A stretch of 64,000 nucleotides of DNA from an uncultured Clostridia bacterium (GTDB lineage: Bacteria; Bacillota; Clostridia; Christensenellales; Aristaeellaceae). The position numbers and the translations under genes were made by a program. This document shows, one piece after another, positions 42,009-57,760 of this stretch. The notes beneath the pieces are model-generated. The model searched no databases. It was not told the origin of the DNA and worked only from the letters and a program-made list of their open reading frames with translations. Every line of letters starts with the position of its first letter. The first letter of the stretch is position 1. The stretch spans positions 5,267 through 69,266 of the forward strand of contig CALGBY010000063.1 of the NCBI GenBank assembly GCA_937886445.1, in the 5' to 3' direction.

Positions 42009-42022
42009 TTCATGGCGCGCCC

Positions 42023-42099
42023 TGGGGGATTCGAACCCACGACCTTTTGATTCGTAGTCAAACACTCTATCCAGCTGAGCTAAGGGCGCATTCACTGTC
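42023..42099 (-). tRNA. tRNA-Arg (anticodon ACG)
   Basis: Manual cloverleaf: GCGCCCT/AGGGCGC acceptor, D arm GCTC-AGCTGGATA-GAGT, anticodon arm TTTGA-CTACGAA-TCAAA, T arm GTGGG-TTCGAAT-CCCCC (one U:C mismatch), and an encoded GCCA. Confidence 0.85.
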
Positions 42100-42220: not shown

Positions 42221-42250
42221 GCAAAACGCCCTCTCCTTTCGGAGAGGGCG
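42221..42250 (-). terminator. terminator of the binding-protein gene
   Basis: CGCCCTCTCC-TTTC-GGAGAGGGCG with a T-run on the minus strand. Confidence 0.7.
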
Positions 42251-42275
42251 CGAATTATTCGACCGTTATGCGATA

Positions 42276-43622
42276 TTATTCAACGCCGTTGAAAGTGTCG
42301 CACAGAGCCTGCCAAGCGGGCATACCGGCTTCAACGATCTCCTGAGGAGTGCCATTCCACAGAGCCCACAGGAGGTTGCTGCCGAGAACGTCATTGTTGG
42401 AACCGAGCAGGAATACCTTGTGAGCGCAGCTGTGCTCGCCCTCACGCATCATGGCATAGGTCTCGTACACGGCGCGTTCGTCGGTGTAGAGGATCTTGTT
42501 GCCAACCCAGCTCTCGTTCTCTTCGCCGCCGTTTACGTCGAAGGTGTAGAGGTCATAAAGCTGCTCGATCTTGTGAGCGGTTTCTTCGTCATACACATTG
42601 GGAACACCATAGATGTTGGGGCAGCCGAAGGCCATGTAGGTAGTGCCATGAGGTCCGACGGGGAACATAACAGCGCCCCATTCATCAGCCATGTCAGCCA
42701 TTTCGGAACCATCGTTGAAGCCCTGCCAGGTCTGTCCGGCATAGAAAGCAGAGGTGCCTTCCTTCCAGAAGGTCTTGAACCAATCCCAGTTGGAGCCTTC
42801 GGGCTGAGGAGCACTGTACTTGCCCCAAGTGTCAATGTTGAACTGGAGAGCTTCCAGAGCATTGTCGCTGCCCATGGTGGGAACCAGCTTGCCTTCAGCA
42901 TCGGTATCGAAGAAGGAAGCATTGTTGGCATACATCAGACCGATGGTGTAGTCATCGCGGGAACCGGTGATGCCGTACACGTCGATAACGCCATCGTTGT
43001 CAACGTCGCGCTGTACCTTGTCGAGCAGCTCAGAAAGCATATCCCAGGTCCAGGTGCCGTTCTGCTGAGCGTCATAGATGGTATTGTAGTCGATACCGGC
43101 TTCTTCCAGAACGCGCTTGTTGAAGAAGATGCAGGAACGGGGCTCATTCTTGCCCAGAGACACGCCATAGGTCACTCCGCCGAAGTTGGAGAACTCGCTG
43201 GCAATGGTGTTCCACTTTTCATCGCTCAGGTCGATGGTCCAGGGCATATAGAGGTTGTTGGCAAAGGCGTTGCCGGCAAAGTCAGAAGCGACGGCGATGA
43301 GGCACAGTTCGCTGTTGTCCTTGTTCATAACGCGGTTAGCCAGTTCAGTGGGGTTGCCTTCCCAGTCGCTCAGAGCCTTTTCAACGATCTTTACATTGTA
43401 GGTGGCTTCGAGCCAGTCACGGTAAGCATAGGTGTTGGCCAGTTCTTCATCGGGATCGGGATCACGGTCACCGGAAGACCACCAGTCATACAGATAAACG
43501 GTGGCACCGCCAAAGTCGAGACCCTCGATCACATCGGGGTATCCTTCGGGGGTTTCGGCCAGAGCTGCGCAGCAGGCAATCAGCATCATGGCAGCCAGAA
43601 CCAGAGCTACGATTTTCTTCAT
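42276..43622 (-). CDS. ABC transporter substrate-binding lipoprotein (carbohydrate type)
   Basis: Lipobox-like MKKIVALVLAAMMLIACCAALA and SBP family-1-like length and composition. ATG at 43622 follows AAGGAGG. Third-position G/C is visibly enriched relative to neighbouring genes. Confidence 0.85.
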   Translation of the reverse strand: MKKIVALVLAAMMLIACCAALAETPEGYPDVIEGLDFGGATVYLYDWWSSGDRDPDPDEELANTYAYRDWLEATYNVKIVEKALSDWEGNPTELANRVMNKDNSELCLIAVASDFAGNAFANNLYMPWTIDLSDEKWNTIASEFSNFGGVTYGVSLGKNEPRSCIFFNKRVLEEAGIDYNTIYDAQQNGTWTWDMLSELLDKVQRDVDNDGVIDVYGITGSRDDYTIGLMYANNASFFDTDAEGKLVPTMGSDNALEALQFNIDTWGKYSAPQPEGSNWDWFKTFWKEGTSAFYAGQTWQGFNDGSEMADMADEWGAVMFPVGPHGTTYMAFGCPNIYGVPNVYDEETAHKIEQLYDLYTFDVNGGEENESWVGNKILYTDERAVYETYAMMREGEHSCAHKVFLLGSNNDVLGSNLLWALWNGTPQEIVEAGMPAWQALCDTFNGVE

Positions 43623-43788
43623 AACGAGAAAACCTCCTTGTTTATTTCCATACGCGTGCATACTGTACGCGTATAGTTACAAATTAGCCGGGCAACCTGA
43701 AACTCATGTTTCTTACAATATGCATTATATAGCATCTGTTACCCGATTGCAAGAGCAAACTGTAAATTATACAGCTTTAGGATCCTCT

Positions 43789-44811
43789 TTACTCCTTGGA
43801 ACCGCTCATCACAAGGCTTTCCACAAACGTACGCTGTGTAAAGATATACAGGATCACCAGAGGAATACAGCACATCACTACAGCAATGGAAACCAGCTGC
43901 AGAGAACGGCCGTTGGATACGACCACGCTCTGCTGCTTGTCGCTGGAGAAATACTTGCCCATTTCGCTTACCATGGTACTCATTTCTGTTGAGAAAAGCG
44001 TGTACTTCGTAAGGAAATTGCGGGAGTAGAAAAGATCTGTCCACTGCCACACAAAAGCGAACAGGAAGCAGCTTGAAATCGTGGGAACAGCATCAGGCAG
44101 CATGATCTTGAGGAAGGTATGCATGGTACCGCACCCGTCCACATAGGCCGCTTCTTCAAGGCTTTCCGGAACACTTTTGAAATACTGCCTCATCATGAAT
44201 ATGTACAGACCGTTTTTCAGACCCATACAGGTGATGGACATCATGGCATAGGGAAAGATGGATTTTCTGATATTCAATGCCTGCCCTGTAAGGCCCTTGA
44301 ATATGCCGAGGATATCAAAGTTGGAGAATGTTTTGTACAGAGATGTCTGAATAGTCTGCGGCGGAATAATGATCAGCGCGATCACGCAGGCAAACCAGAA
44401 CTTTTTAAGCGGGAATTCAAACCGGGCAAAGCCGTACGCGACCAATGTACAGGATACGATCTGCAATACAGCTGTAAGAATGGATATCCACAGGGTGTTG
44501 AACATGGAATTATCCGGCCATACATTCAGCCTTGTCAGATCAGCAACGATCCTGTAGTTATCCAGCGTCACATTTCTGGGCAGAAGAATGACCGTATTGT
44601 CATACAGGTCTCTTTCTTCCATCAGGCTCATCGCGAAACGCGTGATCATCGGCTGAATGATCATAAAGCAAAGCCCGAACATGAGAAGCCCGCGCATCAC
44701 GGAGATCGCGATCTCCTTGCTTCTGCGCTTAAGCAGATAGCCGCCGCTTCTGCGGTTTCTGTCTCTGAACTTCTTGTTTTTTCCGATGTATACCGTGTTG
44801 TTTTTACTCAT
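43789..44811 (-). CDS. carbohydrate ABC transporter permease
   Basis: Six-TM pattern and an EAA-like loop (LEEAAYVDGCGTMHTFLKIMLP). Confidence 0.9.
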   Translation of the reverse strand: MSKNNTVYIGKNKKFRDRNRRSGGYLLKRRSKEIAISVMRGLLMFGLCFMIIQPMITRFAMSLMEERDLYDNTVILLPRNVTLDNYRIVADLTRLNVWPDNSMFNTLWISILTAVLQIVSCTLVAYGFARFEFPLKKFWFACVIALIIIPPQTIQTSLYKTFSNFDILGIFKGLTGQALNIRKSIFPYAMMSITCMGLKNGLYIFMMRQYFKSVPESLEEAAYVDGCGTMHTFLKIMLPDAVPTISSCFLFAFVWQWTDLFYSRNFLTKYTLFSTEMSTMVSEMGKYFSSDKQQSVVVSNGRSLQLVSIAVVMCCIPLVILYIFTQRTFVESLVMSGSKE

Positions 44812-45814
44812 AGGACTTCACCACCAATCTGACAATGGCCGTTCCTACTCCGATAAACAGAAGTGCCACTCCGAAATAGATCCAGCTCATTGCGGAAGCA
44901 GGTCCGAAATTGCCCTGCCTGTACATGACCGTGTTGACCACATACTCCATAACCTTGTTATCATTCTTCATGAAGAAGTCGATGATGGTATAAATCAGAT
45001 TGACCAGCAGAAGCGGGCTGACCATGGGGAAGGTGATCTTCCAGAAGGATTCCCATGCGGAGCAGCCTTCCACATCCGCCGCCTCGTAAAGCGAGGGAGA
45101 AATGGACTGCAGACCGCTCAGGAAAACGATGATCTGGATTCCGCTTGCCATGACCACATCGTATATGGCATCGATCATTTTGAATATAACATCAAATACA
45201 TCGCCTGCCACGCCGGAAACGGAAAGCAGATCCTGCAGGGCGGCGGAAATGTTGACACCGCTCGCTTCCTCCACGCTCTCCCCTATACCGCTCATCAGGT
45301 TGAAGAATTCGTTGGAATTTTCAATGCCGGGCAATACGCCTGAGGAAAGGATCACGGGCAGGAAAAAGATCACACGGCAAATGGTCCTTCCCTTGAATTC
45401 CTGATTAAGGATCACAGCGATCACAAAGCTCATCACCAGTGTAGCCACGATGTTGATCATCATACGCCACACTTCACCCTCCAGATCGTTCGCCGTGCTG
45501 AATAGGTAGGTGAAGAAGTTCGGATCGGTACTCAGTGCGTATTTATAGTTGGCGAATTTGTTCCATTTGATCAGGTTCAGGCCGTCCGCGATACCGTCCA
45601 CATCGTAAAGGCTCATCAGGATGGAATTGATGATGGGCTTGATCATAAACATGAGAAGACCGATGATGAAAGGCATAATGAACAGCACGCCCACGCGGGA
45701 ACGTCTTGCCGCGATCGTTGCGTATTGTTCCTTTTTCCAGGGGACATAAACTATCAGCAGATAGGCGATCAAAAGCAAAGCCAGTACCGCTTCAATCGCA
45801 ATATCCAGTGTCAC
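44804..45814 (-). CDS. carbohydrate ABC transporter permease
   Basis: EAA-like loop (LYEAADVEGCSAWESFWKITFP). Overlaps both neighbouring genes by 4-8 nt. Confidence 0.9.
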   Translation of the reverse strand: MTLDIAIEAVLALLLIAYLLIVYVPWKKEQYATIAARRSRVGVLFIMPFIIGLLMFMIKPIINSILMSLYDVDGIADGLNLIKWNKFANYKYALSTDPNFFTYLFSTANDLEGEVWRMMINIVATLVMSFVIAVILNQEFKGRTICRVIFFLPVILSSGVLPGIENSNEFFNLMSGIGESVEEASGVNISAALQDLLSVSGVAGDVFDVIFKMIDAIYDVVMASGIQIIVFLSGLQSISPSLYEAADVEGCSAWESFWKITFPMVSPLLLVNLIYTIIDFFMKNDNKVMEYVVNTVMYRQGNFGPASAMSWIYFGVALLFIGVGTAIVRLVVKSYE

Positions 45815-48486
45815 GCTTCATTCCCCCCTTCCTGCAAAACCGCTTCTGCATCATCTGTTTCAGGCAGAGCCTCATCAAACATGGTGTCCTCGGGCATCTC
45901 GGAAACTGTTCTTACATAGCTTCTGGCCGGAACAGCCACGCCGTCCACTTCACGGTCGAAGTTGCTGTAGTTAACATACACACAGCTGCCGTCCTCATAG
46001 TAGGTAGCCGTAAGCTGTTCTCTCAGATTTCTGTGACCGATGATGGAAACACCGTTGAGCCCTTCCATGGTATTCTGGAACTCAATGATCACAGGAATCA
46101 CTTCATCCTTCCATCTGTCATACCCCGCGGACGTATAGCAGCTGTACGCGGAATCCTGAAGCAGGATCGTGTCCGCCTTCATGAAGGTAAAGTTCAGTCC
46201 CGAACCGAATTCCGCGCATTCAAGCAAAGCGGTTTTCCAGTCGCCGGCCATGTTGATCGGCTCACCGGTATAATCCTTCAGCCCGTGAAGCACGATCTGA
46301 TAGAAAGGAACATCCTCATCCAGTATCGCGTAGCTGTTTCCGGAGAGCTCCATATCCGTGATCAGATCCGCATAAGGCACAGCATACAGGTTGCCTGCTT
46401 TAACAGAAACCTTCAGACCCTTGTCAAGAGCGCTTTTCAAGGTCTCCACATTCATCTGCTTTACTTCTTCACGGGTGACCGTATCGCGGTGATAATAATC
46501 CGCGCTGAGAAGACGTCCTATATCACGGAACGCCACACCGGCAGCTCCGTTTTCCGCAAGGTTTTCGATCAGGTTTTCTGCGCATTGTGCGGCATAGGAC
46601 GGCTTCACAAGATAGAACTTGTCCATCCAGGTGCTGCGCTGGAAAGTCACAATGTCAAACGACCAAAGCTCGACCTGTTCACGCGTGGTAAAACGCGCTG
46701 CGTGCATATAAGGAATGAAGCCGTCAAAAAGATTGCTGTCGTAGGCAAAGCATGTGATCCCGTCAAAATAGAGATCCACACCGTTATCCTTTGCTTTCGC
46801 GATAAGGGATTTCATTCCCTTATTCCCGCCAAGCACAGATTCGGTACTCACCTTTGTCAGTACAGTCTGGTTGACGCCGCCGTTCGACCATCCGGTCATA
46901 CGAACGGACAGATCCTTCACACCGTTCGAGAGGAGCTCATCCATGATCTCCCCGGCCTGTTCAAAGGTGGTAACAGGAATCACGCTGTCAACAGGCAGTC
47001 CCGCCTTGGGCACTGTTTTGTTGATCGCACCGACCAGTTCCACGTTCACAGGTATTTCGGTTCCCACTTTATCCCCTGTAAGTACGTCCGCGTACCTTTC
47101 CAGAAGATATGATCTGAACGAATGCGCCATTGCCACATAGTCATTGCCGTCTGTGAAGCGGTATCTCTGTGTGATAACGCAATCCGGGATTTTCCCTTCA
47201 TACATATAGAAGGGATTGTTTGAGGCACCGGTCACCTTGAATTTGTCATAATGGATCACGCTGTATTTCGCGTATACTTCGTTATAACTGCTGATTTTTT
47301 CGGAAATATCGGCTGTGATGCTGGCAAAAGCGTCTCCTTCTTCAATGATGCAGATGAAGGATCCGTCTTCCTGCCCCATACCGAATACAGGAAGAGCGGT
47401 TCTGTTCTCAGTCTTCGCTTCTTCAGCCATCTTCGCGTAATCCATACCGTACAGGTTGGTCACATAGGTGGCCTGCTTGATCTTGTGGTTGTTGTAGCGA
47501 ATGATGGAACCGCCGCCTTCAGGAACAAAAATGAAACCGTCGGTCTCAAGATCAGCCGCGCCGAACATCGGCAGCACAGAAACCGCGACAAGCGGCTCAT
47601 CCGCGCTGCAGCGAATGCTTTCATACGGTACCTTTACGATAAAGTCACCGGTTTCTTTGTCCAGGCTGTAAACGATATCGATGTTGAACACGGGACCGTT
47701 TACCTTCTGCTCAGACTGGACAAGATTCATATTATCGATTTCAAGATCCTCGGCAGTATAGTTAGCATCCGCGAAGTATCCTTCCAGATCCCCCTTCTGT
47801 TTGATGCTCAGATCGGATTTCATAACGTAGATCGTGCCGTTTGCAAGTCCGGGATACTGGGCAAGCAGTTCTTCCTTTTCACTGTCCTTCAGCTTGGAAG
47901 GATCCTTTTTGCTGTACATCTTGCCAACGAGCTTGCTGTTTTTCTTGCCCATCGCAGTCGAGAAAGCGTTAAAGCGTTCTTCACTGATCGCCTGCGGGAT
48001 CTGATAAACGCGCTCGATCTGGCCGATCGTATACTTTACGCGTATGCTGCTGTCATCCGGCTGCTCGATAGCGTAATTTTTATTTTGAATGGAATAGGTG
48101 TAATTGTTCCACTCAATATCGGCGCCGAAGCTGGAATAGACAACAGAGAGCGTGCTGGCAAGAAATTCCCTGTTTTTCTGGATAGGTGCCAGTTTGTCAT
48201 CGGCCCATTTTTGAGGATTGGAATACCAGACCTTTCCGGTCTTTTTTTCAGTAAGCTTAAAGTGGGTCGTCTCGGGATCCATTTCAAACTTCAGCTGTTC
48301 ATTCTCCATCGTGTAGGCTTTTTTACCTTCATCCTCATAATAGAGAATTTCCGCTTCGCCATTGTAATTCTGTTCTTCGGTAGGTTTATAGATCTGCCAG
48401 AACAGATATACAAGCGCCGCAACAGCAATGAGGATCAAAGCCGCTATCACGAGACGGATGAGGAGCTTCTTTCTTTTTCTGTCCAT
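45811..48486 (-). CDS. membrane-anchored large hypothetical protein (DUF5696-like by recollection)
   Basis: An 891-aa protein with an N-terminal TM (LLIRLVIAALILIAVAALVYLFW). Motifs LPVFGMG, MTGWSNGGVNQ and DVPFYQIVLHG are reminiscent of DUF5696 / GH-like TIM-barrel proteins. Confidence 0.75.
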   Translation of the reverse strand: MDRKRKKLLIRLVIAALILIAVAALVYLFWQIYKPTEEQNYNGEAEILYYEDEGKKAYTMENEQLKFEMDPETTHFKLTEKKTGKVWYSNPQKWADDKLAPIQKNREFLASTLSVVYSSFGADIEWNNYTYSIQNKNYAIEQPDDSSIRVKYTIGQIERVYQIPQAISEERFNAFSTAMGKKNSKLVGKMYSKKDPSKLKDSEKEELLAQYPGLANGTIYVMKSDLSIKQKGDLEGYFADANYTAEDLEIDNMNLVQSEQKVNGPVFNIDIVYSLDKETGDFIVKVPYESIRCSADEPLVAVSVLPMFGAADLETDGFIFVPEGGGSIIRYNNHKIKQATYVTNLYGMDYAKMAEEAKTENRTALPVFGMGQEDGSFICIIEEGDAFASITADISEKISSYNEVYAKYSVIHYDKFKVTGASNNPFYMYEGKIPDCVITQRYRFTDGNDYVAMAHSFRSYLLERYADVLTGDKVGTEIPVNVELVGAINKTVPKAGLPVDSVIPVTTFEQAGEIMDELLSNGVKDLSVRMTGWSNGGVNQTVLTKVSTESVLGGNKGMKSLIAKAKDNGVDLYFDGITCFAYDSNLFDGFIPYMHAARFTTREQVELWSFDIVTFQRSTWMDKFYLVKPSYAAQCAENLIENLAENGAAGVAFRDIGRLLSADYYHRDTVTREEVKQMNVETLKSALDKGLKVSVKAGNLYAVPYADLITDMELSGNSYAILDEDVPFYQIVLHGLKDYTGEPINMAGDWKTALLECAEFGSGLNFTFMKADTILLQDSAYSCYTSAGYDRWKDEVIPVIIEFQNTMEGLNGVSIIGHRNLREQLTATYYEDGSCVYVNYSNFDREVDGVAVPARSYVRTVSEMPEDTMFDEALPETDDAEAVLQEGGNEA

Positions 48487-48499
48487 TTCTCACCCCTCC

Positions 48500-49201
48500 T
48501 TAATTCAGCCTGAACACGATTTCACGGTAAATGCTCACAAAATACCCGATCGCATCCGAAAGGAGACTGAAGAATACAAGAATCAGGAAGATGATCACGC
48601 AGGCGCCGAAAACCGTAAACAGAAGGAAGATGAATGTTTTCAGCGGGCTGTAATCATGAATTTCCATCAATCCCACAAATACAAGGAATATGCACCACAC
48701 AATGCTGAAGCCCATCAGAACACTGTAAAATCCCATTTCTTCAAATGTGATCATGTTGCTGATGAGGATCAAAGGCAGCTGGATCAGCACATACGGGACC
48801 AGCGCATAGCACATACCGATGTATATGTTTTTGAATGTACCTTTTCCGTCAAACAACGTCGTAAGGGACCAGTTGGCAAGACACAGGATCAGGAAAGGGA
48901 GAAGCAGAGAAGCAGCTTCTTCAAAAACATTGATATGCTGGATCGGTGTATCGACAAACTGAAAATTAGTGTAGAGCAGTTTAAGCACGCGTGTAAGCAG
49001 GAAAAGGAACAAAAACGTATTGGCGGCTGCAAGGCTTCCCTTTCCTTCATGTGCCAGATCCCAGAAGCCGTCAAAGGGATGCGTGATCACATGAAGCGAA
49101 TAACGAATACCGTTCAGGTATGTGTTCAGCCAACCCTTGAACCCGGCTGAGCGTTCGGATGAAAGCCCGGAAGCATCACTTATTGACTTTCTCATGCTCA
49201 T
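48500..49201 (-). CDS. YIP1-family polytopic membrane protein
   Basis: A 233-aa protein. N-terminal HPFDGFWDLAHEGKGSL followed by five hydrophobic segments, typical of Yip1-domain proteins. Confidence 0.7.
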   Translation of the reverse strand: MSMRKSISDASGLSSERSAGFKGWLNTYLNGIRYSLHVITHPFDGFWDLAHEGKGSLAAANTFLFLFLLTRVLKLLYTNFQFVDTPIQHINVFEEAASLLLPFLILCLANWSLTTLFDGKGTFKNIYIGMCYALVPYVLIQLPLILISNMITFEEMGFYSVLMGFSIVWCIFLVFVGLMEIHDYSPLKTFIFLLFTVFGACVIIFLILVFFSLLSDAIGYFVSIYREIVFRLN

Positions 49202-50726
49202 GGATCATCACCTCCCATTTCATTCTCTTGATCCTGCCGAGAACGACAGGCACGATCAGAAGCACCGCGATAATCAGCACCACCCACCAGATGTTCTGCT
49301 CAACCCAGTATTTCCTGTAAAGCTTGAACGTTCTGCCGTAATTATCTCTGTCATGCGCCATTTCAAAATAATCCATGGCCTGCTGATAATACTCAGGATG
49401 GGTATCACTGCCCTGCTGCAGAAGAGAACGTCCTATTCCTCTGAAGGCCAGCGGATAATTGGCGTTCATTTTCATTACATCACGCCAGGTATCGGAGCTT
49501 GCGTTGTACTCACCGCGGGAATACTGGTCGATCGCATCGTAGATCATCATACCGTATTCTGTGGGAGTAAACACGGTAATGCTGTTCTTCTGCTGGTCCA
49601 GTACAAAAAGGTCATATCCCATATGATCCATTGAGATCGCATTGATGAAGGCGCCGTCAATGTTTCCCTGCGTTCCGAACGCCCACAGCAGCACGCCCTG
49701 GCTGTCATATCCGAAAAGACGTCCTCTTGTTTTGTCCAGCGCCACATAAATGTCATTAATGTTCAGCGCGGTGATATCAGTAAAGCGACTGGGACCGTAC
49801 TGCTGCGTATCACCCTCCTGCCACCAGAGATCTCCGATGGGAGGATAACGGTCATTCTTGATCAGAATATCGTTACCGATACCGTTCAGACGGCGAATCG
49901 GCTTCGCGTTATCCCACTTCAGGTCGTACTCACTGAAGGTCGTCGTGGTCACATAGATAAACCCGTCGTCATCCATGTAAAGGTTGTCGTATTCGGTAGG
50001 TACCGTATTCTCTGTCGCGGCACGCTGCTCATCGCTTTGAATAAAGCGTTTCCAAAGGTATTCACCCATTGTGATGGATACCTGGTTCGCACCCACAAAG
50101 CCGACAAAGGTTCCGTCTGCTTCATACTTGACAAGGCCTTTGTTTACATTCTGCACATTCGCGTATACACGTCCGCTCACGTCCACGGTTATGCGTCTGG
50201 GCAGAAAATCGTTGTCCTGATTGAAAATAGGATTGGTCGGCTTTACGAATTCCTTGATCCAGTTCAGATCCTTATCCACCATGACGATGCGGAAATTCTG
50301 TTTATCCGAAATGTAGATATTGTTATCCTTATCCACAAATACATCCGTAGGCGAATTAAGTTTTGTTACCTCACAGCCCTTGATCTCGGTGATCTCGCGG
50401 ACAAATCTGAAATCACCGTTTTCGCGTGTGGCCTGAATGATCCTGTTGTTGCCGGTATCAGCAATATAAAGGTCATTGTTTCTGATGAAAATACTTTCAG
50501 GGCGGTTCATATCCGAAGTGCCCAGATTCATACTGGTGATCACCGTGCTTATACGGTAGGCGTCCGGTGATTCCATAACATCCTCATAATAATCATAGGT
50601 ATATGTATAGGATGTGCTGAACCCGTCCTTGTTCAGATTGAAGCTGTCATCAGCAAGCGCAGCACATGCCGTCATAAGAAGCACGATACAAAGCAATGCG
50701 CTTACTTTCTTTTTCAGTGTTCTCAC
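49176..50726 (-). CDS. NHL-repeat beta-propeller protein with signal peptide and C-terminal TM anchor
   Basis: Repeated (L/I)Y(I/V)ADxxNxRI(I/V) units: LYIADTGNNRIIQ, IYISDKQNFRIVMV, IYVALDKTRGRLFGYD and LFVLDQQKNSITVF. C-terminal WWVVLIIAVLLIVPVVL. Confidence 0.75.
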   Translation of the reverse strand: MRTLKKKVSALLCIVLLMTACAALADDSFNLNKDGFSTSYTYTYDYYEDVMESPDAYRISTVITSMNLGTSDMNRPESIFIRNNDLYIADTGNNRIIQATRENGDFRFVREITEIKGCEVTKLNSPTDVFVDKDNNIYISDKQNFRIVMVDKDLNWIKEFVKPTNPIFNQDNDFLPRRITVDVSGRVYANVQNVNKGLVKYEADGTFVGFVGANQVSITMGEYLWKRFIQSDEQRAATENTVPTEYDNLYMDDDGFIYVTTTTFSEYDLKWDNAKPIRRLNGIGNDILIKNDRYPPIGDLWWQEGDTQQYGPSRFTDITALNINDIYVALDKTRGRLFGYDSQGVLLWAFGTQGNIDGAFINAISMDHMGYDLFVLDQQKNSITVFTPTEYGMMIYDAIDQYSRGEYNASSDTWRDVMKMNANYPLAFRGIGRSLLQQGSDTHPEYYQQAMDYFEMAHDRDNYGRTFKLYRKYWVEQNIWWVVLIIAVLLIVPVVLGRIKRMKWEVMIHEHEKVNK

Positions 50727-50764
50727 TTTTCATTCCCTCCTTTTCATTCTCGTTCTTATCAGGC

Positions 50765-51988
50765 TCAATCCTTGATACCGGAGGATGCCATGGTCTCCAG
50801 TATCTGGCTCTGGCTGAGGATGAAAATGATAATGGGAACAGATACGATGATCACCTGTGCCGCGGCAGTCTGTCCGGTACGGGCAATACCGCCGGCCTGT
50901 ATCTGCTGAAGCGCGTATACGAGCGTTTTCTTGGATTCTGTGTAGATCAGCGTGCTGGCGGAGGTGTTCCAGAGGCTCTGCACGCTGAAAATGATCACGG
51001 TAAGCCACGCGGGCTTGACATTGGGCATCACAATGCTCCAGAAGATGCGGAACTCACCGGCACCGTCGATATGAGCGGCCTCGATCAGCGCAGTAGGCAG
51101 TCCTTCCATGAACTGCTTCATCATGAACAAACCGATAGGCGCCGCAAAGGCGGGCAAAATGAGTGCCCAGTAGGTATCGATAATATTGAATCTGCTCATG
51201 ATCAGGTAGCTCGGGATACCGGTCACATAGCCGGAGAACATCAGGCAGGTGGTTACAACACCAAAGAACAGCCTTCCGCCCGGGAACTGGTATTTGGCAA
51301 GCACAAAGGCAGCCATACTGGCAATGATCAGGTGACCGAAGGTTCCAACAAACGTGATAAAGAAGGTGTTTACGATATACCTGCTGAACGGCACCCAGCT
51401 CTGCCCCATCGTAACGATCAGATCAGAGAAGTTGTCTGTTGTAGGATGCTGAGCGAAAACCGTCGGCGGGAAGCGGAAAAGCTCGTCCAGCGGCTTAAGC
51501 GATGAGCCCACCATGAAAACCAGCGGAAATACCATCATGACCGCAACCAGCAGCAGCAGGAAATACACGAAAATATCTCCGCCGATCGAACGGTTGGGAT
51601 GACGGCGGTGAACAATGTGATGTTTTTTCTGGATGCGTTCACCGCGAAGCTCGGCCAATCTGTGAAGCTCGTCCGCTCTGGTATGGGAGGCTGTTTCGGA
51701 AGCGGGACGGTGCTTATCGATATAATCATGCACTCTGAGGCCGTTATCCAGCTCCATCGTATAGATTATATCGTCCTTGAGATGAACCGTCATTTGTGTG
51801 CTGACACCGCCGCGGCGGATCTTATCCACACGGTCAATACGCACATAACGGAATTCAGCTTCCGGGGTTTCTTTTCCTTTTCTGATAAATTCGGCGTGAT
51901 CTGCGTAGGCAAAAAGTGTTCCGTGCCACTTTTCTCCGGACGGCATTTTCAATACGCCCGTTGATTTAACGAAATCCACTTCACTCAT
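50765..51988 (-). CDS. carbohydrate ABC permease (MalG-like) fused to a ~125-aa N-terminal cytoplasmic domain
   Basis: The C-terminal 280 aa are a standard permease with an EAA loop (LIEAAHIDGAGEFRIFWSIVMP). The N-terminal MSEVDFVKSTGVLKMPSGEKWHGTLFAYADHAEFI...TVHLKDDIIYTMEL looks like a small beta-rich, PH-like domain. Confidence 0.85.
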   Translation of the reverse strand: MSEVDFVKSTGVLKMPSGEKWHGTLFAYADHAEFIRKGKETPEAEFRYVRIDRVDKIRRGGVSTQMTVHLKDDIIYTMELDNGLRVHDYIDKHRPASETASHTRADELHRLAELRGERIQKKHHIVHRRHPNRSIGGDIFVYFLLLLVAVMMVFPLVFMVGSSLKPLDELFRFPPTVFAQHPTTDNFSDLIVTMGQSWVPFSRYIVNTFFITFVGTFGHLIIASMAAFVLAKYQFPGGRLFFGVVTTCLMFSGYVTGIPSYLIMSRFNIIDTYWALILPAFAAPIGLFMMKQFMEGLPTALIEAAHIDGAGEFRIFWSIVMPNVKPAWLTVIIFSVQSLWNTSASTLIYTESKKTLVYALQQIQAGGIARTGQTAAAQVIIVSVPIIIFILSQSQILETMASSGIKD

Positions 51989-51989
51989 C

Positions 51990-52934
51990 TCAGTTTCCCA
52001 CCTTTGCCAGCAGATTGGTAATGGCCTTCTTGCAAAGGATCATTACAAGGAACAGCAGCGTGGCGATCGCCGACGCATATCCCATTTCAAAGCGGGAGAA
52101 GCCATAGTCAAACAGGTGTGTAACAACCGTTCGGGCGGCATAGTCGGTAGACGGATATCCGCAGAGAGCACGCGGCACATCGCATACATTGAACGCAGAA
52201 GTGATGCTCATTACGGCGCCGAACAGCAGCATGGGCTTCATGCTGGGCAGCGTGATATGATACAGTTCCTGCCAGCGGTTGCGTACACCGTCCACATAAC
52301 CCGCTTCATACATGCTCTTGTCAACGCTCTGAAAACCGGCCACAAAGCTTAGGAAGCCGGTACCCATGCTCATCCAGAGAATGACTACGATCAGGATCGG
52401 CATCATATATTCGGGATTGAGCAGCCACAGAATAGGGGCATCAATAATTCCCAGCTCCATCAGGATAGAGTTGAGATAGCCATATGCGTCTCCGCGGAAA
52501 ATGATGGAGAACACAGTAAAGGCGTTGGCGGCGATGGAGGGGGCATAGAATACTACCACAGCGATCGTTCTCAGCCATTTGGGAAGCTCGTTGATGAACC
52601 ACGCGAACATGAATGAAAGGATATATCCGACCGGTCCGGTGATCACGGCGATGATGAATGTATTCTTGACGGAAGTCAGGAATACTTCATCCTGCAGCAC
52701 GAGGTTCACATAGTTCTGAAAGCCGATGAATCTTGCCGGCTCAAGAATGTTGTAGTAGGTAAAGCTGTAGAAAATGGATGTGCATATCGGCAGGATAAAG
52801 AAGGTGAAGAACAGGATCGCGTAAGGCGCGAGGAAGAGGTAACATACCTTGTTCCTTTTAGCCAGCGCCCAGCCGTGCGCGATATTGTCCTTTTTCATGG
52901 ACATATATCTTGAGGCCAAAGATGCTTCTTTCAT
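51990..52934 (-). CDS. carbohydrate ABC permease (MalF-like)
   Basis: Six-TM pattern and an EAA loop (MYEAGYVDGVRNRWQELYHITLP). Confidence 0.9.
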   Translation of the reverse strand: MKEASLASRYMSMKKDNIAHGWALAKRNKVCYLFLAPYAILFFTFFILPICTSIFYSFTYYNILEPARFIGFQNYVNLVLQDEVFLTSVKNTFIIAVITGPVGYILSFMFAWFINELPKWLRTIAVVVFYAPSIAANAFTVFSIIFRGDAYGYLNSILMELGIIDAPILWLLNPEYMMPILIVVILWMSMGTGFLSFVAGFQSVDKSMYEAGYVDGVRNRWQELYHITLPSMKPMLLFGAVMSITSAFNVCDVPRALCGYPSTDYAARTVVTHLFDYGFSRFEMGYASAIATLLFLVMILCKKAITNLLAKVGN

Positions 52935-52952
52935 TCGTTATTCCCTCCCCTC

Positions 52953-55900
52953 TTATTCCAGCGGCAGGTTGAATTCCCGCCGTTTTACCTTGATCTCTTC
53001 GTTGATCGTACGGGTATAATTGAGCAAGGTCTCTCTCGGATCGGTCTTTTCATTGATCACCTTGCGGATCGCGTTCGTGATATGACGTGTAGTGGAATAA
53101 CCGCCCGCGATTTCCGGGAAGCCCTTAGTATATTTCATCTGACCGGTAAGCACCTTCAGCTGATCGTTGGACCAGGCGAGCATACGGAGCGCTTCCTTGT
53201 TGGCTGTCTGATACCTTGCACTGGCACCCAGAATGCTTTCCATTTCACGGCCGAACTCAGCCTGGGTATCCGCGCTGACCCACCACTTCATGAATTCCCA
53301 CGCGTTGCTCTTGACATTTTCATCATCCGTCGCGATCATCATGCAGCAAAGCCCGTTGGACTGTACAGTGCGGTCGATCGTTCCGTCTTCGCGCAGAGTA
53401 CCAGGAAGCAGCGTAAAGTCCCAAAGACCGCGAATTTCAGGAGCGGAGATCATAAGTGTATTGAAAGTGGAATAGCTTGCGATTCCGATGGGCATCTCGC
53501 CGCTGCGGAACCGGCTTACAAAGTCAAATATCGTAGGCAGACCGTAATCGTTATAGAGGCTGGTATAGGTTTTGAACGCGGCCACACCCGCTTCTTCATC
53601 CAGGCGAGTCTTCTTGGCTCCGTCCGCGTAGATCTCTCCGCCATTCTGGAACACCATGGTGTTGAAAATGGAAATGTCGGCGAGCGCGATATCCGGGAAA
53701 GGAATGGCCACGGTATAGTTATTGCCCTGGATGGTGGGAAGCATCGCGATCAGCTCATCCCAGGTCTGAGGAACCGTAAGTCCCATCTCTTCAAGCATGT
53801 CTGTGCGATAGAAGAGAACATTGTAATTCAGCGTCTCAGGGAGTCCGTAAACGCCCTTGCGTTCACCGTCATCCCAGGTAAGCGTTGAAAGGCTGCTGGA
53901 ATAGGTCGGGTTGTTTTCGTTGTAATAGAAGGGCTTTGTGACCTCGGCAAAATCTTCAAACTGGGTCAGATCCTCAACTGCATTTCGCATCGCGTAGTTC
54001 ACCGCGAACCAGCCGTCAACGCTCAGAACGATATCCGGTCCGTTTCCGGCAACGACCGCGGTAAGGATCGCGTCTGCGGCCACCAGCTTCAGGTTGACGC
54101 CGATTCGTTTGCCGTTCTTTTCCGTCATCGGCGTAAAGCTTTCGTCGATCATGGTCTTCAGCGCGGTACTTTGATCGCGGCCCGTAACGATCCAGATCTC
54201 GATCACGTTGGGATCGTCTTCCTCGTACTTATTTCCGAGTGAATTATAATCTACGAAATAAGAACTGACGCAGCTGTTGATCTCATGAGCGGCTTTGTTG
54301 AAGAAGCCTTCATTATTGGCAGGTACAGTAACATCATCGCCGGTGATCATGATAAGGTCAATATCCAGCTTGCTTTCGGCCATGTTCTGCATAGCCGTTC
54401 CCAGCGAAGTGATATTGTCCTTAAAGTTTGTAAAGGATTCGATCAGCCTGTCTTCATTCCCCACAAACTCTTCAAGCTGAACAGCCAATGTCTGAGCAAC
54501 AGCCACGCGGTCGCTCTTCTGGCCGGTCGTCTTAACAGCATCGTCAACGATCTGGTAGAGCCGCTTGCTCTCTCTGGACATACTTGATTTCAGTTCGGGG
54601 AACTGCTGATACAGCGTGTAATCGCGGAAGCGGTCGGGATTGACACCGGTCACAACCAGCATCTGTCTGTAAATATCGTTCAGACGGCTGATGCTGTTGT
54701 TGATACGCTTGATGATGGAGCCCATATCTCCCAGCGTGACTTCCATACGAATGGTATGCTTGCCGGCTGTAAGATAGAAGCGGTAAGGCACTCCCTCCGC
54801 GTCAGAGAGCGTTTTCATCTCCCATACGGTGGAATAGCCAAACGCTACGCTTCCCAAAGCGTCAAAAGGCACCTCGCCATCGATATATACGGTTCTGCAG
54901 GAGAGCGCGCCGCGCTGATACAGTTGTCTCCCCTTAACGGTAATACTATAGAAACCGTCATTGGGCACCTCAAATTCCCATTCGATCCACTCACCCGGAT
55001 TGGTCCATGCGGTACCGCCGATATAATTCAGCACGGTATGGGTCGTTGAAGAAGGACTGGTTTCAGAAGAGGACCGGTCATAGCGCGCATACAGAGACGG
55101 CTCGCTGCGTCTGCGGGAGCTTTCACCCTCCACGACCACAGATACGCCCTCACTGCTGCTTTCGCGTCCGGCATTGGTTTCCTGATATCCCTCATAGGTA
55201 ATATAGGTGAGAACAGGGCACGCAGAAACAGATGTAACGATCATCGGCTCATTCACGCCCACCAGAGTGATCGTGTTTTCACCTGCATTCAGATAGAAAC
55301 AATAGGGGTCTGTCTGGTATCCCTTGTCATCTCTCAGATATGAATACTGTTTTTCGCCGAAGATCTCTTTCTGGCTGGGACGGATCTCATTGCCCTGGGT
55401 ATCCTTTCCGATCTCGCCGCCATCGGTCCATATACGTGAAAAACGAAGCGTTGAAGCCCCGAAGAACGGCAATTCACCGTTGATCCTGACTTCGCGTTCA
55501 ATATCCACTCCGCGGTCAGGCACCGTATAATAACCGATCTCAATATTGTAGAAAGCCGCTTCGGGTACGGTGATACGCCATGTAACGGCAGACTCATTTC
55601 CGGTGAACACGCCTTCGTTTACCGTGACAGTTTCAGCGCTTTCTTTATCAGAATATACAGGTATGCCCTGCTCACCGACAGCGCCGGTCTCAACAGTGTT
55701 TCCGAGGATCTCAGAAGACACGCCGGCATCCTCTACCGTAAAAGCGGAAATATCCGCTTCAATGCGTTCCCCCTGATAATTCACGGCATCAGAATGCATG
55801 ACCAGATAATCGTCATACTGATCATGACGCCCGATGCTTTCCTCATCAGCTGTGATGCTCAGATCCGTTCCGCTGTATTTGGCCGAATAATCTGCAGCCC

Positions 55901-55985
55901 CGGAATTGCTGATAAGTATGATCCCCACGACAATCACAGCAACTGCTGCCACAAAGATAATGATGTTGCGAAGTCTTCTTGACAT
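52953..55985 (-). CDS. membrane-anchored giant solute-binding protein: TM + two CBM-like beta-sandwich modules + helical region + SBP domain
   Basis: ATG at 55985 (AGGAG at 8 nt) gives MSRRLRNIIIFVAAVAVIVVGIIL. There are two similar modules (WRITVPEAAFYNIEIGYY...INGELPF and WEFEVPNDGFYSITVKGR...IDGEVPF). The C-terminal ~420 aa are SBP-like (YGLPETLNYNVLFYRTD, GNNYTVAIP). Confidence 0.8.
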   Translation of the reverse strand: MSRRLRNIIIFVAAVAVIVVGIILISNSGAADYSAKYSGTDLSITADEESIGRHDQYDDYLVMHSDAVNYQGERIEADISAFTVEDAGVSSEILGNTVETGAVGEQGIPVYSDKESAETVTVNEGVFTGNESAVTWRITVPEAAFYNIEIGYYTVPDRGVDIEREVRINGELPFFGASTLRFSRIWTDGGEIGKDTQGNEIRPSQKEIFGEKQYSYLRDDKGYQTDPYCFYLNAGENTITLVGVNEPMIVTSVSACPVLTYITYEGYQETNAGRESSSEGVSVVVEGESSRRRSEPSLYARYDRSSSETSPSSTTHTVLNYIGGTAWTNPGEWIEWEFEVPNDGFYSITVKGRQLYQRGALSCRTVYIDGEVPFDALGSVAFGYSTVWEMKTLSDAEGVPYRFYLTAGKHTIRMEVTLGDMGSIIKRINNSISRLNDIYRQMLVVTGVNPDRFRDYTLYQQFPELKSSMSRESKRLYQIVDDAVKTTGQKSDRVAVAQTLAVQLEEFVGNEDRLIESFTNFKDNITSLGTAMQNMAESKLDIDLIMITGDDVTVPANNEGFFNKAAHEINSCVSSYFVDYNSLGNKYEEDDPNVIEIWIVTGRDQSTALKTMIDESFTPMTEKNGKRIGVNLKLVAADAILTAVVAGNGPDIVLSVDGWFAVNYAMRNAVEDLTQFEDFAEVTKPFYYNENNPTYSSSLSTLTWDDGERKGVYGLPETLNYNVLFYRTDMLEEMGLTVPQTWDELIAMLPTIQGNNYTVAIPFPDIALADISIFNTMVFQNGGEIYADGAKKTRLDEEAGVAAFKTYTSLYNDYGLPTIFDFVSRFRSGEMPIGIASYSTFNTLMISAPEIRGLWDFTLLPGTLREDGTIDRTVQSNGLCCMMIATDDENVKSNAWEFMKWWVSADTQAEFGREMESILGASARYQTANKEALRMLAWSNDQLKVLTGQMKYTKGFPEIAGGYSTTRHITNAIRKVINEKTDPRETLLNYTRTINEEIKVKRREFNLPLE

Positions 55986-56215
55986 GAGTCCATCTCCTGC
56001 CATACTGCCCAAGCAGCGATAATACACTGTAACGTACGAAACATATCGTCGGTTTGTTACATACGCACAAATTTCACATATTTTATTATATAATTCTACA
56101 AACATTTGTCAATCTTTCAATCATTACAACTTTGTTACAAACATGATTTGAAAACTTAATATTTTTTCAAATACCGCCGTGTATAATAGAATTTATCACA
56201 GATCCGGAGGATTTT

Positions 56216-57760
56216 ATGAGGAAGAAAACGCTTTTTCTTACATTCGCGATGATGCTGATGCTTATCACCCACAATTGCATTTTTTCTGCATCAGCCGAAG
56301 AGAGCAAGGCTTGCGAAAGCAGAACCGTGTTTTCCGTACACGGTTCCTGTATGATTCGCGGCGAAGCGGCTCCCGGTCCCGATTTTGTTTACTACAGCGG
56401 TTTCGCATCGGACGACGGCTATGTGTCCCTTTCCCCTTCCCTTTTTGAGGCTGTAAACGGGAACACAGTTGATCTGTCCTTCAGCGTCTATCAGGATACA
56501 GGAAGGGATATCTGCCTCAAATTGTTCTGGAGCAATCCGAAACATACCGTAGTATCCGAATACAGCATCCCTTCAGGCGCAAAAACCTGCATATCAGTTG
56601 AAGCTGCCTTCAACTACGGAAGAAGCCTTTGCATTACTTCGGATGATATTTTTCCCGAAGAGATCATCGCTTTCGGTGATATTACCGGAAGGATCCTTTC
56701 CTATGATGATAAAGCACTTGCTTACGAAAAGTATCCGCTTGATATTCCTTCTCTGAAGGAGCTTTGCGGCAGTTTCTTCACCTTTGGCGGAGCGATCTCC
56801 GCATCGGAAACCAAAGACGCGAAAAGGATGGCCTTCTATGCATCACAATTTTCCATCCTCACTCCCGGTAATGAGCTGAAGCCGGACGCGGTATTCGACA
56901 GGACAAAAAGCCGTAAGCTGGTCGAAGAGAGCGGTGATGAACGGCTGTTGGCGGTCAGGATCAATTCCGCCGTTCCTATCCTGAATTTCTGCCGGGATAA
57001 CGGGATAAGCGTACATGGTCATACACTGTTGTGGCACAATCAGACCCCTGAGGATTTTTTCCACCTCGGTTATGATCCTTCCAAGCCTCTTGCCGACAGA
57101 GAAATCATGCTTGCCAGAATGGAAAATTATATTAAGTCTGTGCTTGAATTGACCGAAGAATCATACCCGGGGCTAATCGTCAGCTGGGATGTTGTAAACG
57201 AGGCGATCGATGACGGGACAGGTTCACTCAGAACCAAAGTAAACTGGTACAAAACAGTCGGTCCCGATTATGTTGAAAAAGCGTTTGAATACGCAAGAAA
57301 ATACGCCCGTCCCGATATTCTCCTCTGCTACAACGATTACAATACCGTGACCGGCCGTAAACTGAACGGGATCCTTTCTCTTCTTGAAACGCTTACCGCT
57401 CAGGGTAACATCGACTGTTACGGTTTCCAGTCCCATTATGACTGCTACAGTCCCGGAGCTGCCATGGTGGAAAAGGCGTTCATAAAGATGATCGATATGG
57501 GTCTGAAGATCAGGATCAGCGAGCTGGATGTGAAAATGAACGGAAAAACCGATACGAATATCAAGATGCAGGCAAAAAAATACAGTGAAATGTTTTCACT
57601 GTATAAAAAGTACGGCGCCGATATCGCGGCTGTACAGATCTGGGGCTGTACCGATGATACAAGTTGGCTGCTCGGTAAATATCCGCTTCCCTTTGCCGCC
57701 TACGGCCAGCCCAAACCCGCCTATTTCGCAATCCAAGATGCACTGAATGCAGACAACTGA
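56216..57760 (+). CDS. GH10 endo-1,4-beta-xylanase with N-terminal signal peptide and ~170-aa accessory (CBM-like) module
   Basis: GH10 motifs TPGNELKPD, HGHTLLWHNQTP, WDVVNEAI (acid/base Glu), YNDYN, GFQSHY and ISELDV (nucleophile Glu). Confidence 0.9.
   Translation: MRKKTLFLTFAMMLMLITHNCIFSASAEESKACESRTVFSVHGSCMIRGEAAPGPDFVYYSGFASDDGYVSLSPSLFEAVNGNTVDLSFSVYQDTGRDICLKLFWSNPKHTVVSEYSIPSGAKTCISVEAAFNYGRSLCITSDDIFPEEIIAFGDITGRILSYDDKALAYEKYPLDIPSLKELCGSFFTFGGAISASETKDAKRMAFYASQFSILTPGNELKPDAVFDRTKSRKLVEESGDERLLAVRINSAVPILNFCRDNGISVHGHTLLWHNQTPEDFFHLGYDPSKPLADREIMLARMENYIKSVLELTEESYPGLIVSWDVVNEAIDDGTGSLRTKVNWYKTVGPDYVEKAFEYARKYARPDILLCYNDYNTVTGRKLNGILSLLETLTAQGNIDCYGFQSHYDCYSPGAAMVEKAFIKMIDMGLKIRISELDVKMNGKTDTNIKMQAKKYSEMFSLYKKYGADIAAVQIWGCTDDTSWLLGKYPLPFAAYGQPKPAYFAIQDALNADN

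Follow-up and report, generated by a model that had tools for sequence, protein, structure and literature searches.

A predicted nine-gene operon

The window analysed here, a 64,000-nt stretch of contig CALGBY010000063.1 (assembly GCA_937886445.1) from an uncultured Clostridia bacterium, carries on its minus strand a cluster of nine genes for ATP-binding cassette (ABC) importer components and three membrane proteins of other families. The listing of open reading frames (ORFs) and their translations placed all nine in one orientation between 42276 and 56105, as a first-pass annotation of this DNA had reported, and we number them g1 to g9 in transcription order. The genes and the signals at the two ends of the cluster are given below (TM, transmembrane; pLDDT, predicted local distance difference test score; AF2, AlphaFold2; modules A and B are defined in the next section but one).

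56085..56112, minus strand: operon promoter, TTGACA-16-TATAAT, 12/12 consensus matches, leader of ~90 nt to the g1 start
52953..55985, minus strand: g1, 1010-aa TM-anchored giant solute-binding protein; C-terminal SBP_bac_8, E 2e-24
51990..52934, minus strand: g2, MalF/UgpA-type permease, 314 aa, module A; BPD_transp_1 E 2e-13, UgpA/GlcT-like matches, EAA motif
50765..51988, minus strand: g3, MalG/UgpE-type permease, 407 aa, module A; BPD_transp_1 at residues 223-397
49176..50726, minus strand: g4, exported six-bladed NHL beta-propeller; Pfam NHL 39 bits, AF2 pLDDT 84.9
48500..49201, minus strand: g5, Yip1-family polytopic membrane protein, 233 aa; Pfam Yip1 51 bits
45811..48486, minus strand: g6, 891-aa DUF5696 protein; Pfam E 3e-182, N-terminal TM anchor, extracellular body
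44804..45814, minus strand: g7, MalF-type permease, 336 aa, module B; BPD_transp_1
43789..44811, minus strand: g8, MalG-type permease, 340 aa, module B; BPD_transp_1, MalG and UgpE matches
42276..43622, minus strand: g9, lipoprotein CUT1 solute-binding protein, 448 aa; weak SBP_bac_1, lipobox
42223..42251, minus strand: terminator-like hairpin, 10-bp GC-rich stem, GAAA loop and T run, 25 nt past the g9 stop

From g1 to g9 the successive spacings are 18, 1, 38, -26, 13, -4, -8 and 166 nt, with g4/g5, g6/g7 and g7/g8 as overlapping pairs. With its promoter, its tight or overlapping genes and its terminal hairpin, the cluster is predicted to be a single operon. The hairpin was read directly; a terminator scan missed it, the T run being interrupted. 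A longer ORF for g1 begins at 56105, and its first codons are overlapped by the perfect sigma-70 promoter (56112-56085). Because of this overlap the ATG at 55985, which is preceded by GGAGA and had been taken as the start in the first-pass annotation, is the likely start of g1. The earlier start for g9, 43661, gives way to 43622, which is more likely by its ribosome-binding site (AAGGAGG, 7 nt upstream) and its lipobox (LIAC); the g8-g9 gap is therefore 166 nt.

The earlier family calls for all nine genes agreed with our hidden Markov model (HMM) searches against Pfam, weakly in the case of g9, which is backed by PDB entry 6rjy. Hydropathy likewise agreed with the proposed anchors (TM helices in g1 and g6, a C-terminal TM helix in g4, a polytopic g5 and a lipoprotein g9). 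The Pfam scan of the nine genes found no ATPase, no regulator and no recognised glycoside hydrolase (GH) inside the cluster, and Pfam also confirmed the GH10 gene noted as divergent at 56216.

The transport core

The binding protein g1 scores 87 bits against SBP_bac_8 and 74 bits against SBP_bac_1 in Pfam. Its layout comprises an N-terminal TM helix (residues 8-26), which is also seen in the hydropathy profile, two duplicated beta-sandwich modules (internal duplication E 3e-8), a helical linker and a C-terminal CUT1 solute-binding domain, the last resembling the oligosaccharide binder Lin1841 (5ysb, E 7e-11). The N-terminal modules gave a weak match to CBM_35 (E 0.002), one of the carbohydrate-binding module (CBM) families, and nothing significant in a Pfam rescan. 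The second binding protein, g9, has a lipoprotein signal and reaches 23.8 bits against SBP_bac_1, below the cut-off of 26; among solved structures it is closest to an arabino-oligosaccharide binding protein (PDB 6rjy, E 1e-5).

Each of g2, g3, g7 and g8 carries BPD_transp_1 with an EAA motif, read as EAxxxDG in the translations, and the NCBIfam types for these permeases are UgpA/UgpE, GlcT/GlcU and MalF/MalG. An SBP_bac_1/8-class binding protein and a MalF/MalG-type permease pair with the EAA motif, two of the marks of CUT1 importers, are thus both present, and by sequence we assign the transport core to the CUT1 ABC importers (TC 3.A.1.1).

An N-terminal cytoplasmic extension of ~135 aa in g3 has no Pfam match. 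It is kept in the closest relatives (~400 aa) and missing from the Lachnospiraceae orthologues (~300 aa). In the rumen Clostridia loci L062, L065, L071 and L081, which have long DUF5696 proteins, the g3 permeases reach 580-605 aa; the extra regions of the 580-aa variants gave nothing significant in Pfam.

Conservation of gene order and two-module anatomy

A scan of one genome per species gave 80 closest loci, in which ORFs were called and every ORF was assigned to the best-scoring of the nine window proteins. In this neighbourhood survey, set beforehand as a refuting test of the earlier claim, the gene order was kept outside this strain: all 80 loci have the order 1-2-3-4-5-6-7-8-9 on a single strand, and the core of the cassette recurs in 22 distant loci. 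Fifty-one of the 80 are complete; the others stop short at a contig end or, in four cases, have a gene split into at least two ORFs. The loci come from rumen and gut Clostridia metagenome-assembled genomes (MAGs), Christensenellaceae, Lachnospiraceae and one Faecalibacterium MAG, and their cultured carriers include Butyrivibrio hungatei DSM 14810, B. proteoclasticus P6B7 and two other Butyrivibrio. A gene order shared by 80/80 related loci is far beyond chance, and the same order has been annotated independently on the B. fibrisolvens plasmid pNP243. In one locus, L084, on a 1.43-Mb contig of a Lachnospiraceae MAG, the g1, g6 and g8 homologues are each split into two to three ORFs, either through decay of the cassette or through indel errors in long-read assembly.

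DUF5696 itself was found in 4,635 representative clusters (E <= 1e-3) of a library of 1.84 billion proteins. An even sample of the phylum had it in 32/401 genomes (~8%) and 19/278 genera, and it was absent from all 14 model genomes that served as controls. For the anatomy of more distant cassettes we used 22 loci, 20 from the even sample together with two annotated plasmid loci. The block formed by NHL and Yip1 (as separate genes or joined), DUF5696 and two permeases is present in 22/22 of them. In L110 detection was limited to the Yip1 half, and DUF5696 is separated from the permease pair by three other ORFs. A second block, of giant solute-binding protein and two permeases, usually precedes this core; it follows the core in L101, L105 and L107, and in L096 and L111 it is not adjacent, the core and a g9-type binding protein standing alone. 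The position of g9 itself varies among the 22 loci, being before the cassette, after it or not detected.

Since g4-g8 are found before, after or without g1-g3, the operon appears to be made of two separable modules, module A (g1-g3) and module B (g4-g8, to which g9 is joined in many loci). The first-pass annotation had described two importers wrapped around the trio g4-g6; the genes are as it listed them, and the layout is better described by modules A and B.

The NHL propeller and the Yip1 protein

The hydropathy profile of g4 shows a signal peptide and a C-terminal TM segment. In the AF2 model the propeller is followed by a helical TPR-like domain (390-477) and then by the C-terminal TM helix (479-515). 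Foldseek matched g4 to TRIM71, Brat, the PknD sensor and BT1954, with target-normalised TM-scores of 0.75-0.8 to the NHL domains of TRIM71, Thin and Brat. These structural neighbours are binding platforms, and no enzyme with an evident corresponding site is among them. A signalling role for g4 is unlikely because its cytoplasmic tail is only ~19 residues long, without an output domain.

The g5 protein matches Yip1 (PF04893) with 51 bits against a cut-off of 28.6, spanning 171/173 model positions, and has five hydrophobic segments. Its gene is overlapped by g4 by 26 nt. In 12/22 of the phylum-wide loci the g4 and g5 homologues are a single polypeptide. One such protein, a 719-aa 'YIP1 family protein' of Paenibacillus cellulosilyticus, aligns in BLASTP with g4 over residues 39-498 (E 9e-46) and with g5 over residues 520-719 (E 4e-15). 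Because the homologues are fused, and consistent with the 26-nt overlap, we read g4 and g5 as the two halves of one functional unit. One of the paralogous cassettes of this genome also has NHL and Yip1 joined, in a 676-aa protein (C64:21525-23555).

Fold and candidate active site of g6

The 891-aa protein had been called DUF5696-like. The relationship held and the qualifier did not: g6 is a full member of DUF5696 (PF18952), with 607.6 bits against a cut-off of 25.6 over model positions 2-612 (611/612 covered). Its N-terminal TM anchor is confirmed by hydropathy. The AF2 model, built from a 45-sequence alignment (pLDDT 89.4, predicted TM-score 0.84), begins with a TM helix (3-33) and continues with a beta-sandwich that includes a helical insert (58-445), then a (beta/alpha)8 barrel (~480-800) and a second, C-terminal beta-sandwich (815-861). 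Foldseek matched this model to DagB (5opq, E 3e-31) and to the GH129 enzyme NagBb (5wzn, E 8e-24, target-normalised TM-score 0.71), with GH101, GH31 and GH36 further down; the solved enzymes among these matches are alpha-glycosidases. The sequence profile of g6 likewise found DagB (E 2e-12) and NagBb (E 2e-9) in the PDB, and hhalign gave a probability of 94.8% for the match to GH129 with a 138-sequence DUF5696 alignment. Pfam assigns g6 to DUF5696 alone, and the GH129 model (PF11308) finds nothing anywhere in this genome. We conclude that DUF5696 is only distantly related to GH129 and DagB and belongs to neither.

Residues were mapped through four Bacillota proteins recognised by the Pfam GH129 model, in whose profile the nucleophile of NagBb, Asp435, falls on the first D of WFIDCD and the acid/base, Glu478, on the E of GSEGGN. 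In the hhalign alignment the nucleophile motif falls on F653-R654-D655 of g6, a placement made uncertain by a 2-residue gap, and Glu478 falls on K696, just ahead of the conserved G698-N699. D663 was at one point considered as the counterpart of the DagB/NagBb nucleophile on a weak HMM alignment (-1.7 bits) and was dropped, since the NagBb-to-GH129 alignment together with hhalign places it opposite NagBb Cys445. The work on DagB identified Asp486 as the equivalent of NagBb Asp435, with Asp202, Glu517 and Glu531 as further essential acids, and noted that DagB, though active, does not conserve the acid/base of NagBb (PMC5698469).

A different set of polar residues is conserved among 141 family representatives: D663 (94%), R672 (96%), N699 (87%), D723 (89%), N745 (100%) and E759 (94%), joined family-wide by D251, D/E323, D349 and E382 in the N-terminal domain. 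In the AF2 model most of these residues map to the loops after barrel strands 4-7, on the C-terminal face of the barrel. D663 and D723 lie 60 residues apart, a spacing that resembles the strand-4/strand-6 catalytic pairs of GH27, GH31 and GH36. The first-pass annotation had proposed g6 as a candidate glycan-active enzyme; the enzyme-like fold was borne out by AF2 and Foldseek, and the GH129 catalytic acid pair was not, with Lys696 in the acid/base position. By the model g6 has an enzyme-like fold with a strongly conserved pocket in which the GH129 dyad is not kept, and we put the odds of catalysis by g6 at roughly even.

Some rumen Clostridia (L062, L065, L071, L081, P0125 and P0126) have DUF5696 proteins of 1,300-2,431 aa, in which ~300 aa are inserted after residue 190 and beta-sandwich-like segments are repeated towards the C-terminus. 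The extra regions have no significant Pfam match, and the long forms did not prove to be fusions with other parts of the cassette.

Energy supply

It is established that CUT1 systems of Firmicutes can share an ATPase of the MsmX type in trans. No ATPase gene for the cassette was found in the cassette itself or in the 80 orthologous loci, where the two flanking ABC_tran matches sit with ABC_membrane (exporter-type) matches. This genome has five MalK/MsmX-type ATPase genes containing OB_MalK and ~62 CUT1 permease ORFs, and 0/5 of the ATPase genes adjoin a CUT1 permease gene, in line with the borrowed ATPase that had been suggested earlier. The gene content thus supports a predicted supply of the ATPase in trans by an MsmX/MalK-type gene elsewhere in the genome.

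In two Paenibacillus-type loci, L091 and L093, an MsmX/UgpC-type ATPase gene lies directly upstream of the g1 homologue. In L091 (Paenibacillus cellulosilyticus plasmid NZ_CP054609.1, 15787-25010) the cassette with its own UgpC-type ATPase is followed not by GHs but by four LLM-class flavin-dependent oxidoreductases, one NADPH-dependent oxidoreductase and a further two binding proteins, an odd context for a sugar importer.

Neighbouring genes, paralogues and substrate

Two features flank the operon in the window.

56216..57760, plus strand: divergent secreted GH10 endo-xylanase; Pfam GH10 E 1e-78, signal peptide, NEA/SELD motifs intact
42013-42089, minus strand: tRNA-Arg(ACG), co-oriented, directly past the operon terminator, with its own promoter-like site

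The N-terminus of the GH10 protein gave nothing significant in Pfam. On the opposite flank, the tRNA gene is followed by a strong terminator (42008-41972), and a SauUSI-like restriction gene lies on this side; an Rfam scan of the window found no RNA family besides tRNA.

Among 189 proteins flanking the 80 orthologous cassettes we counted AraC regulators (21), GH43 (17), GH10 (16), GH5 (8), GDSL esterases (5) and GH39 (3), together with GH115 (1), GH130 and alpha-galactosidases. On pNP243 of B. fibrisolvens, GH43 and a two-component system adjoin the cassette. Because of the GH10, GH43, GH39 and AraC neighbours of this orthogroup and the divergent secreted GH10, the substrate of the window copy is most likely xylan-derived, that is, (arabino- or glucurono-) xylo-oligosaccharides.

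Three full paralogous cassettes are present in this genome: the window copy on C63, C102:6427-21242 and C64:16691-27696. The best paralogues of every component, including those of g7, are its counterparts in the other two cassettes, and we therefore take the cassette to multiply as a unit. The C102 copy is neighboured by GH26 with CBM35, a CBM65 protein and GH130; the C64 copy is neighboured by GH130, a CBM26 protein, a LacI regulator (read from sequence alone) and a beta-mannosidase-like (GH2-type) gene, so called from its sequence and not by a Pfam scan. As these paralogues adjoin mannan enzymes and the window copy adjoins xylan-type ones, the cassette is a generic chassis whose copies specialise.

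Several observations concern the other copies. The g9 position of the C64 cassette (C64:27707-29092) is occupied by a lipoprotein of 461 aa that matches no Pfam family and has a GH5/GH30-like NIGNEPD motif, and not by a recognisable binding protein; the DUF5696 copy of this cassette has Thr at the D723 and E382 columns. Outside the cassettes, C52:6428-8242 encodes a soluble DUF5696-like protein of 574 aa without a signal peptide (DUF5696 E 4e-31, weak DUF6259). Its gene has a GtaA-type six-hairpin hydrolase on one side and an ordinary ABC system on the other, with neither Yip1 nor NHL, and the protein retains D655, D663, D723 and N745. It possibly represents a branch of the family made up of cytoplasmic enzymes. 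Upstream of the second cassette, at a distance of ~4.5 kb, a 514-aa ORF (C102:365-1909) was seen by eye to contain a YADD motif, which is typical of group II intron reverse transcriptase/maturase. Two other genomes of 2.2-2.4 Mb, G044 and G054, carry six and four giant g1-type binding proteins and, at first look, 13 and 11 DUF5696 candidates, of which three were scored in each; the cassette may be the main type of glycan importer in these lineages.

Possible separate control of g9

One further feature lies within the operon.

43623..43788, minus strand: structured 166-nt spacer between g8 and g9; promoter-like TTGCAA-17-TATAAT and a perfect 8-bp inverted repeat

The inverted repeat of the spacer reads ATACGCGT-N9-ACGCGTAT on the minus strand. 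The predicted RNA fold (-53.7 kcal/mol, z = -4.0) is far stabler than that of shuffled sequence. Because of the promoter-like site and the unusually stable fold, g9 might have additional control of its own, and the spacer could serve as operator, processing site or stabiliser and in this way separate g9 expression from that of the permeases.

Proposed mechanism and alternatives

On balance we favour the view that the nine genes encode a two-module CUT1-type oligosaccharide importer, powered in trans, of which the accessory trio g4-g6 is part. Module A would use the tethered g1, with its CBM-like modules, to capture longer oligosaccharides at the cell surface and pass them to its own permease pair. 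Module B would consist of the g7/g8 pair, the lipoprotein g9 and two obligate surface partners, the g4 and g5 platform and g6. The g6 protein, whose fold is that of retaining alpha-glycosidases (DagB, GH129, GH101 and GH31), would act on the glycan outside the membrane ahead of import, most likely trimming or positioning decorated oligosaccharides, and would be kept at the translocator by the propeller/Yip1 unit. The secreted GH10 would release the xylo-oligosaccharides that the importer takes up. The physical assembly, catalysis by g6 and the substrate are the parts of this proposal that we infer.

Several points weigh against it. What ties the trio to the permeases is gene order and gene fusion. 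The xylan assignment comes from the neighbouring genes, and the best solved relative of g9 binds arabino-oligosaccharides. No regulator was found among the flanking genes of the window cassette, and our literature search found no paper that mentions DUF5696. All structural relatives of g6 cut alpha-linkages and the backbones of xylan and mannan are beta-linked, which would limit any hydrolytic role of g6 to side chains. DUF5696 accompanies loci for different polysaccharides, which fits a generic better than a substrate-specific role. The catalytic pair defined by homology to GH129 is also not conserved as a pair: column 655, the nucleophile, is acidic in 44/45 orthologues and in 45% of the 141 representatives, and column 696, the acid/base, is acidic in 0/45 orthologues and in 40% of the representatives.

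These columns bear most directly on a second explanation, which we regard as possible though less likely: that DUF5696 is a pseudo-glycosidase which has kept the fold and the pocket, has lost cleavage and serves as an extracellular subunit that receives, orients or gates oligosaccharides. DUF5696 may then also dock binding proteins over the permeases of module B, with NHL-Yip1 as a membrane scaffold. Such a loss would account for the Lys, Asn, Arg or Ser that fills the acid/base column in 45/45 orthologues and for the Ser, Thr or Asn of the nucleophile column in ~40% of the family. A search for a subfamily with an intact GH129 dyad found both columns acidic in 17/141 representatives, where ~25 would be expected if they were independent. 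The constancy of DUF5696 as a transporter partner, whether the neighbouring carbohydrate-active enzymes (CAZymes) are xylan- or mannan-type, points the same way, as does a conserved polar set at positions other than those of the dyad. However, the best-conserved residues lie on the loops after strands 4-7, which is where TIM-barrel glycosidases catalyse, and D663 and D723, on the loops after strands 4 and 6, are placed as in GH27/31/36, of which GH31 and GH36 are among the Foldseek matches. The soluble C52 paralogue, which lies among GH genes without a Yip1 or NHL partner, also argues for an enzymatic function, and DagB shows that activity can survive a change of the acid/base residue (PMC5698469).

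A bolder version of the importer is doubtful at present. Here the cassette would form a single supramolecular capture-and-import machine of monoderms, the functional counterpart of the starch utilisation system (Sus) of Bacteroidota, in which NHL-TPR-Yip1 docks DUF5696 and the giant solute-binding protein over two ABC pores, and DUF5696 would either constitute a new GH family whose catalytic pair has been relocated (D663/D723 type) or be the first non-catalytic ABC-importer subunit to derive from a glycosidase. If true, it would allow uptake of decorated oligosaccharides beyond that of ordinary CUT1 systems.

Finally, that two independent importers merely share an operon, with a trio whose job is unrelated to transport (envelope sensing or signalling by NHL as in PknD, or surface maintenance), would suit the separable modules of varying relative order, the promoter-like site and structured leader of g9 and the likeness of the g4 propeller to the extracellular PknD sensor domain, but is very improbable, as g4-g5-g6 are never apart from g7-g8 in 102 cassette loci or in the three cassettes of this genome, g4 has no output domain and a cytoplasmic tail of only ~19 residues, and the g4/g5, g6/g7 and g7/g8 overlaps suggest translational coupling.

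The two-module importer that we favour would matter in several respects. Much less is understood of the uptake of complex plant glycans by Gram-positive bacteria of the gut and rumen than of the Bacteroidota Sus systems, and the cassette is widespread and often multi-copy in gut and rumen Firmicutes, beside differing fibre-degrading enzymes. Its absence from the model organisms of our control set may explain why it has not been studied. If the trio is part of the importer, it would add unrecognised subunits to a major route of xylan and mannan oligosaccharide uptake in fibre-degrading Firmicutes, and DUF5696 would be new either as a CAZy family or as a kind of transporter accessory. The cultured carriers (Butyrivibrio hungatei, B. 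proteoclasticus, B. fibrisolvens and Paenibacillus cellulosilyticus) make the question directly testable.

Comparison with known systems

Searches of the literature on Gram-positive polysaccharide utilisation loci (gpPULs), on Yip1 in polysaccharide utilisation and on the NHL repeat in Butyrivibrio yielded nothing relevant, the accessory trio not being mentioned, and RefSeq annotates the cassette proteins of the plasmid loci with domain names only. The closest parallels are drawn component by component.

With the CUT1 importers of Firmicutes (MalEFG/MsmEFG/UgpABCE type) the cassette shares SBP_bac_1/8 binding proteins, MalF/MalG pairs and EAA motifs, and like the orphan-ATPase members of this group it lacks an ATPase gene of its own, with MalK-type ATPases encoded elsewhere. 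It differs in having two permease pairs per operon, a binding protein of 1010 aa that is TM-tethered and carries duplicated CBM-like modules, and three obligate membrane proteins, the NHL propeller, Yip1 and DUF5696, that have no counterpart in the characterised CUT1 systems.

The nearest relatives of g6 are DagB/ZgGH129 (5opq, 8rzk), an exo-alpha-1,3-(3,6-anhydro)-D-galactosidase of Zobellia galactanivorans, and NagBb (5wzn), the GH129 enzyme of Bifidobacterium bifidum. All share the succession of beta-sandwich, TIM barrel and beta-sandwich as well as profile homology, and Asp655 of g6 probably stands at the position of the NagBb nucleophile Asp435. Unlike these two enzymes, with which it has 12-14% identity, g6 has a membrane anchor and an extra helical insert in its N-terminal domain, is always encoded inside a transporter cassette and has no Pfam GH129 match. 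In contrast to NagBb, Lys696 replaces the acid/base Glu478, and the residues conserved family-wide are a different set.

At the level of the locus, the window resembles the gpPULs (Sheridan et al. 2016, PMC5320581) in that, in a Firmicute of the gut or rumen, GH10 adjoins an ABC transporter for carbohydrates, and the orthologous loci add AraC or two-component regulators and further GHs. The gpPUL definition calls for a CAZyme, a transporter and a regulator, whereas the window copy is without an adjacent regulator.

For a bacterial Yip1 protein encoded with an ABC transporter there is one precedent, YknW, the Yip1-family accessory subunit of the YknWXYZ transporter of Bacillus subtilis (PMC4887032). 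This is an unrelated exporter: YknYZ is a MacB-type exporter of a peptide toxin that works with a membrane-fusion protein, and YknWXYZ has no propeller, DUF5696 or binding protein. For g4, an analogy, and an analogy only, can be drawn with the BtuG-type lipoproteins of Bacteroides (BT1954, PDB 8bmz), surface beta-propellers that capture the ligand of a transporter; these belong to a different propeller family and to an outer-membrane TonB system, and their ligand is vitamin B12. Set beside all of these systems, the cassette, uncharacterised and with accessory proteins that are undescribed, is a conserved one built around an ordinary transport core.

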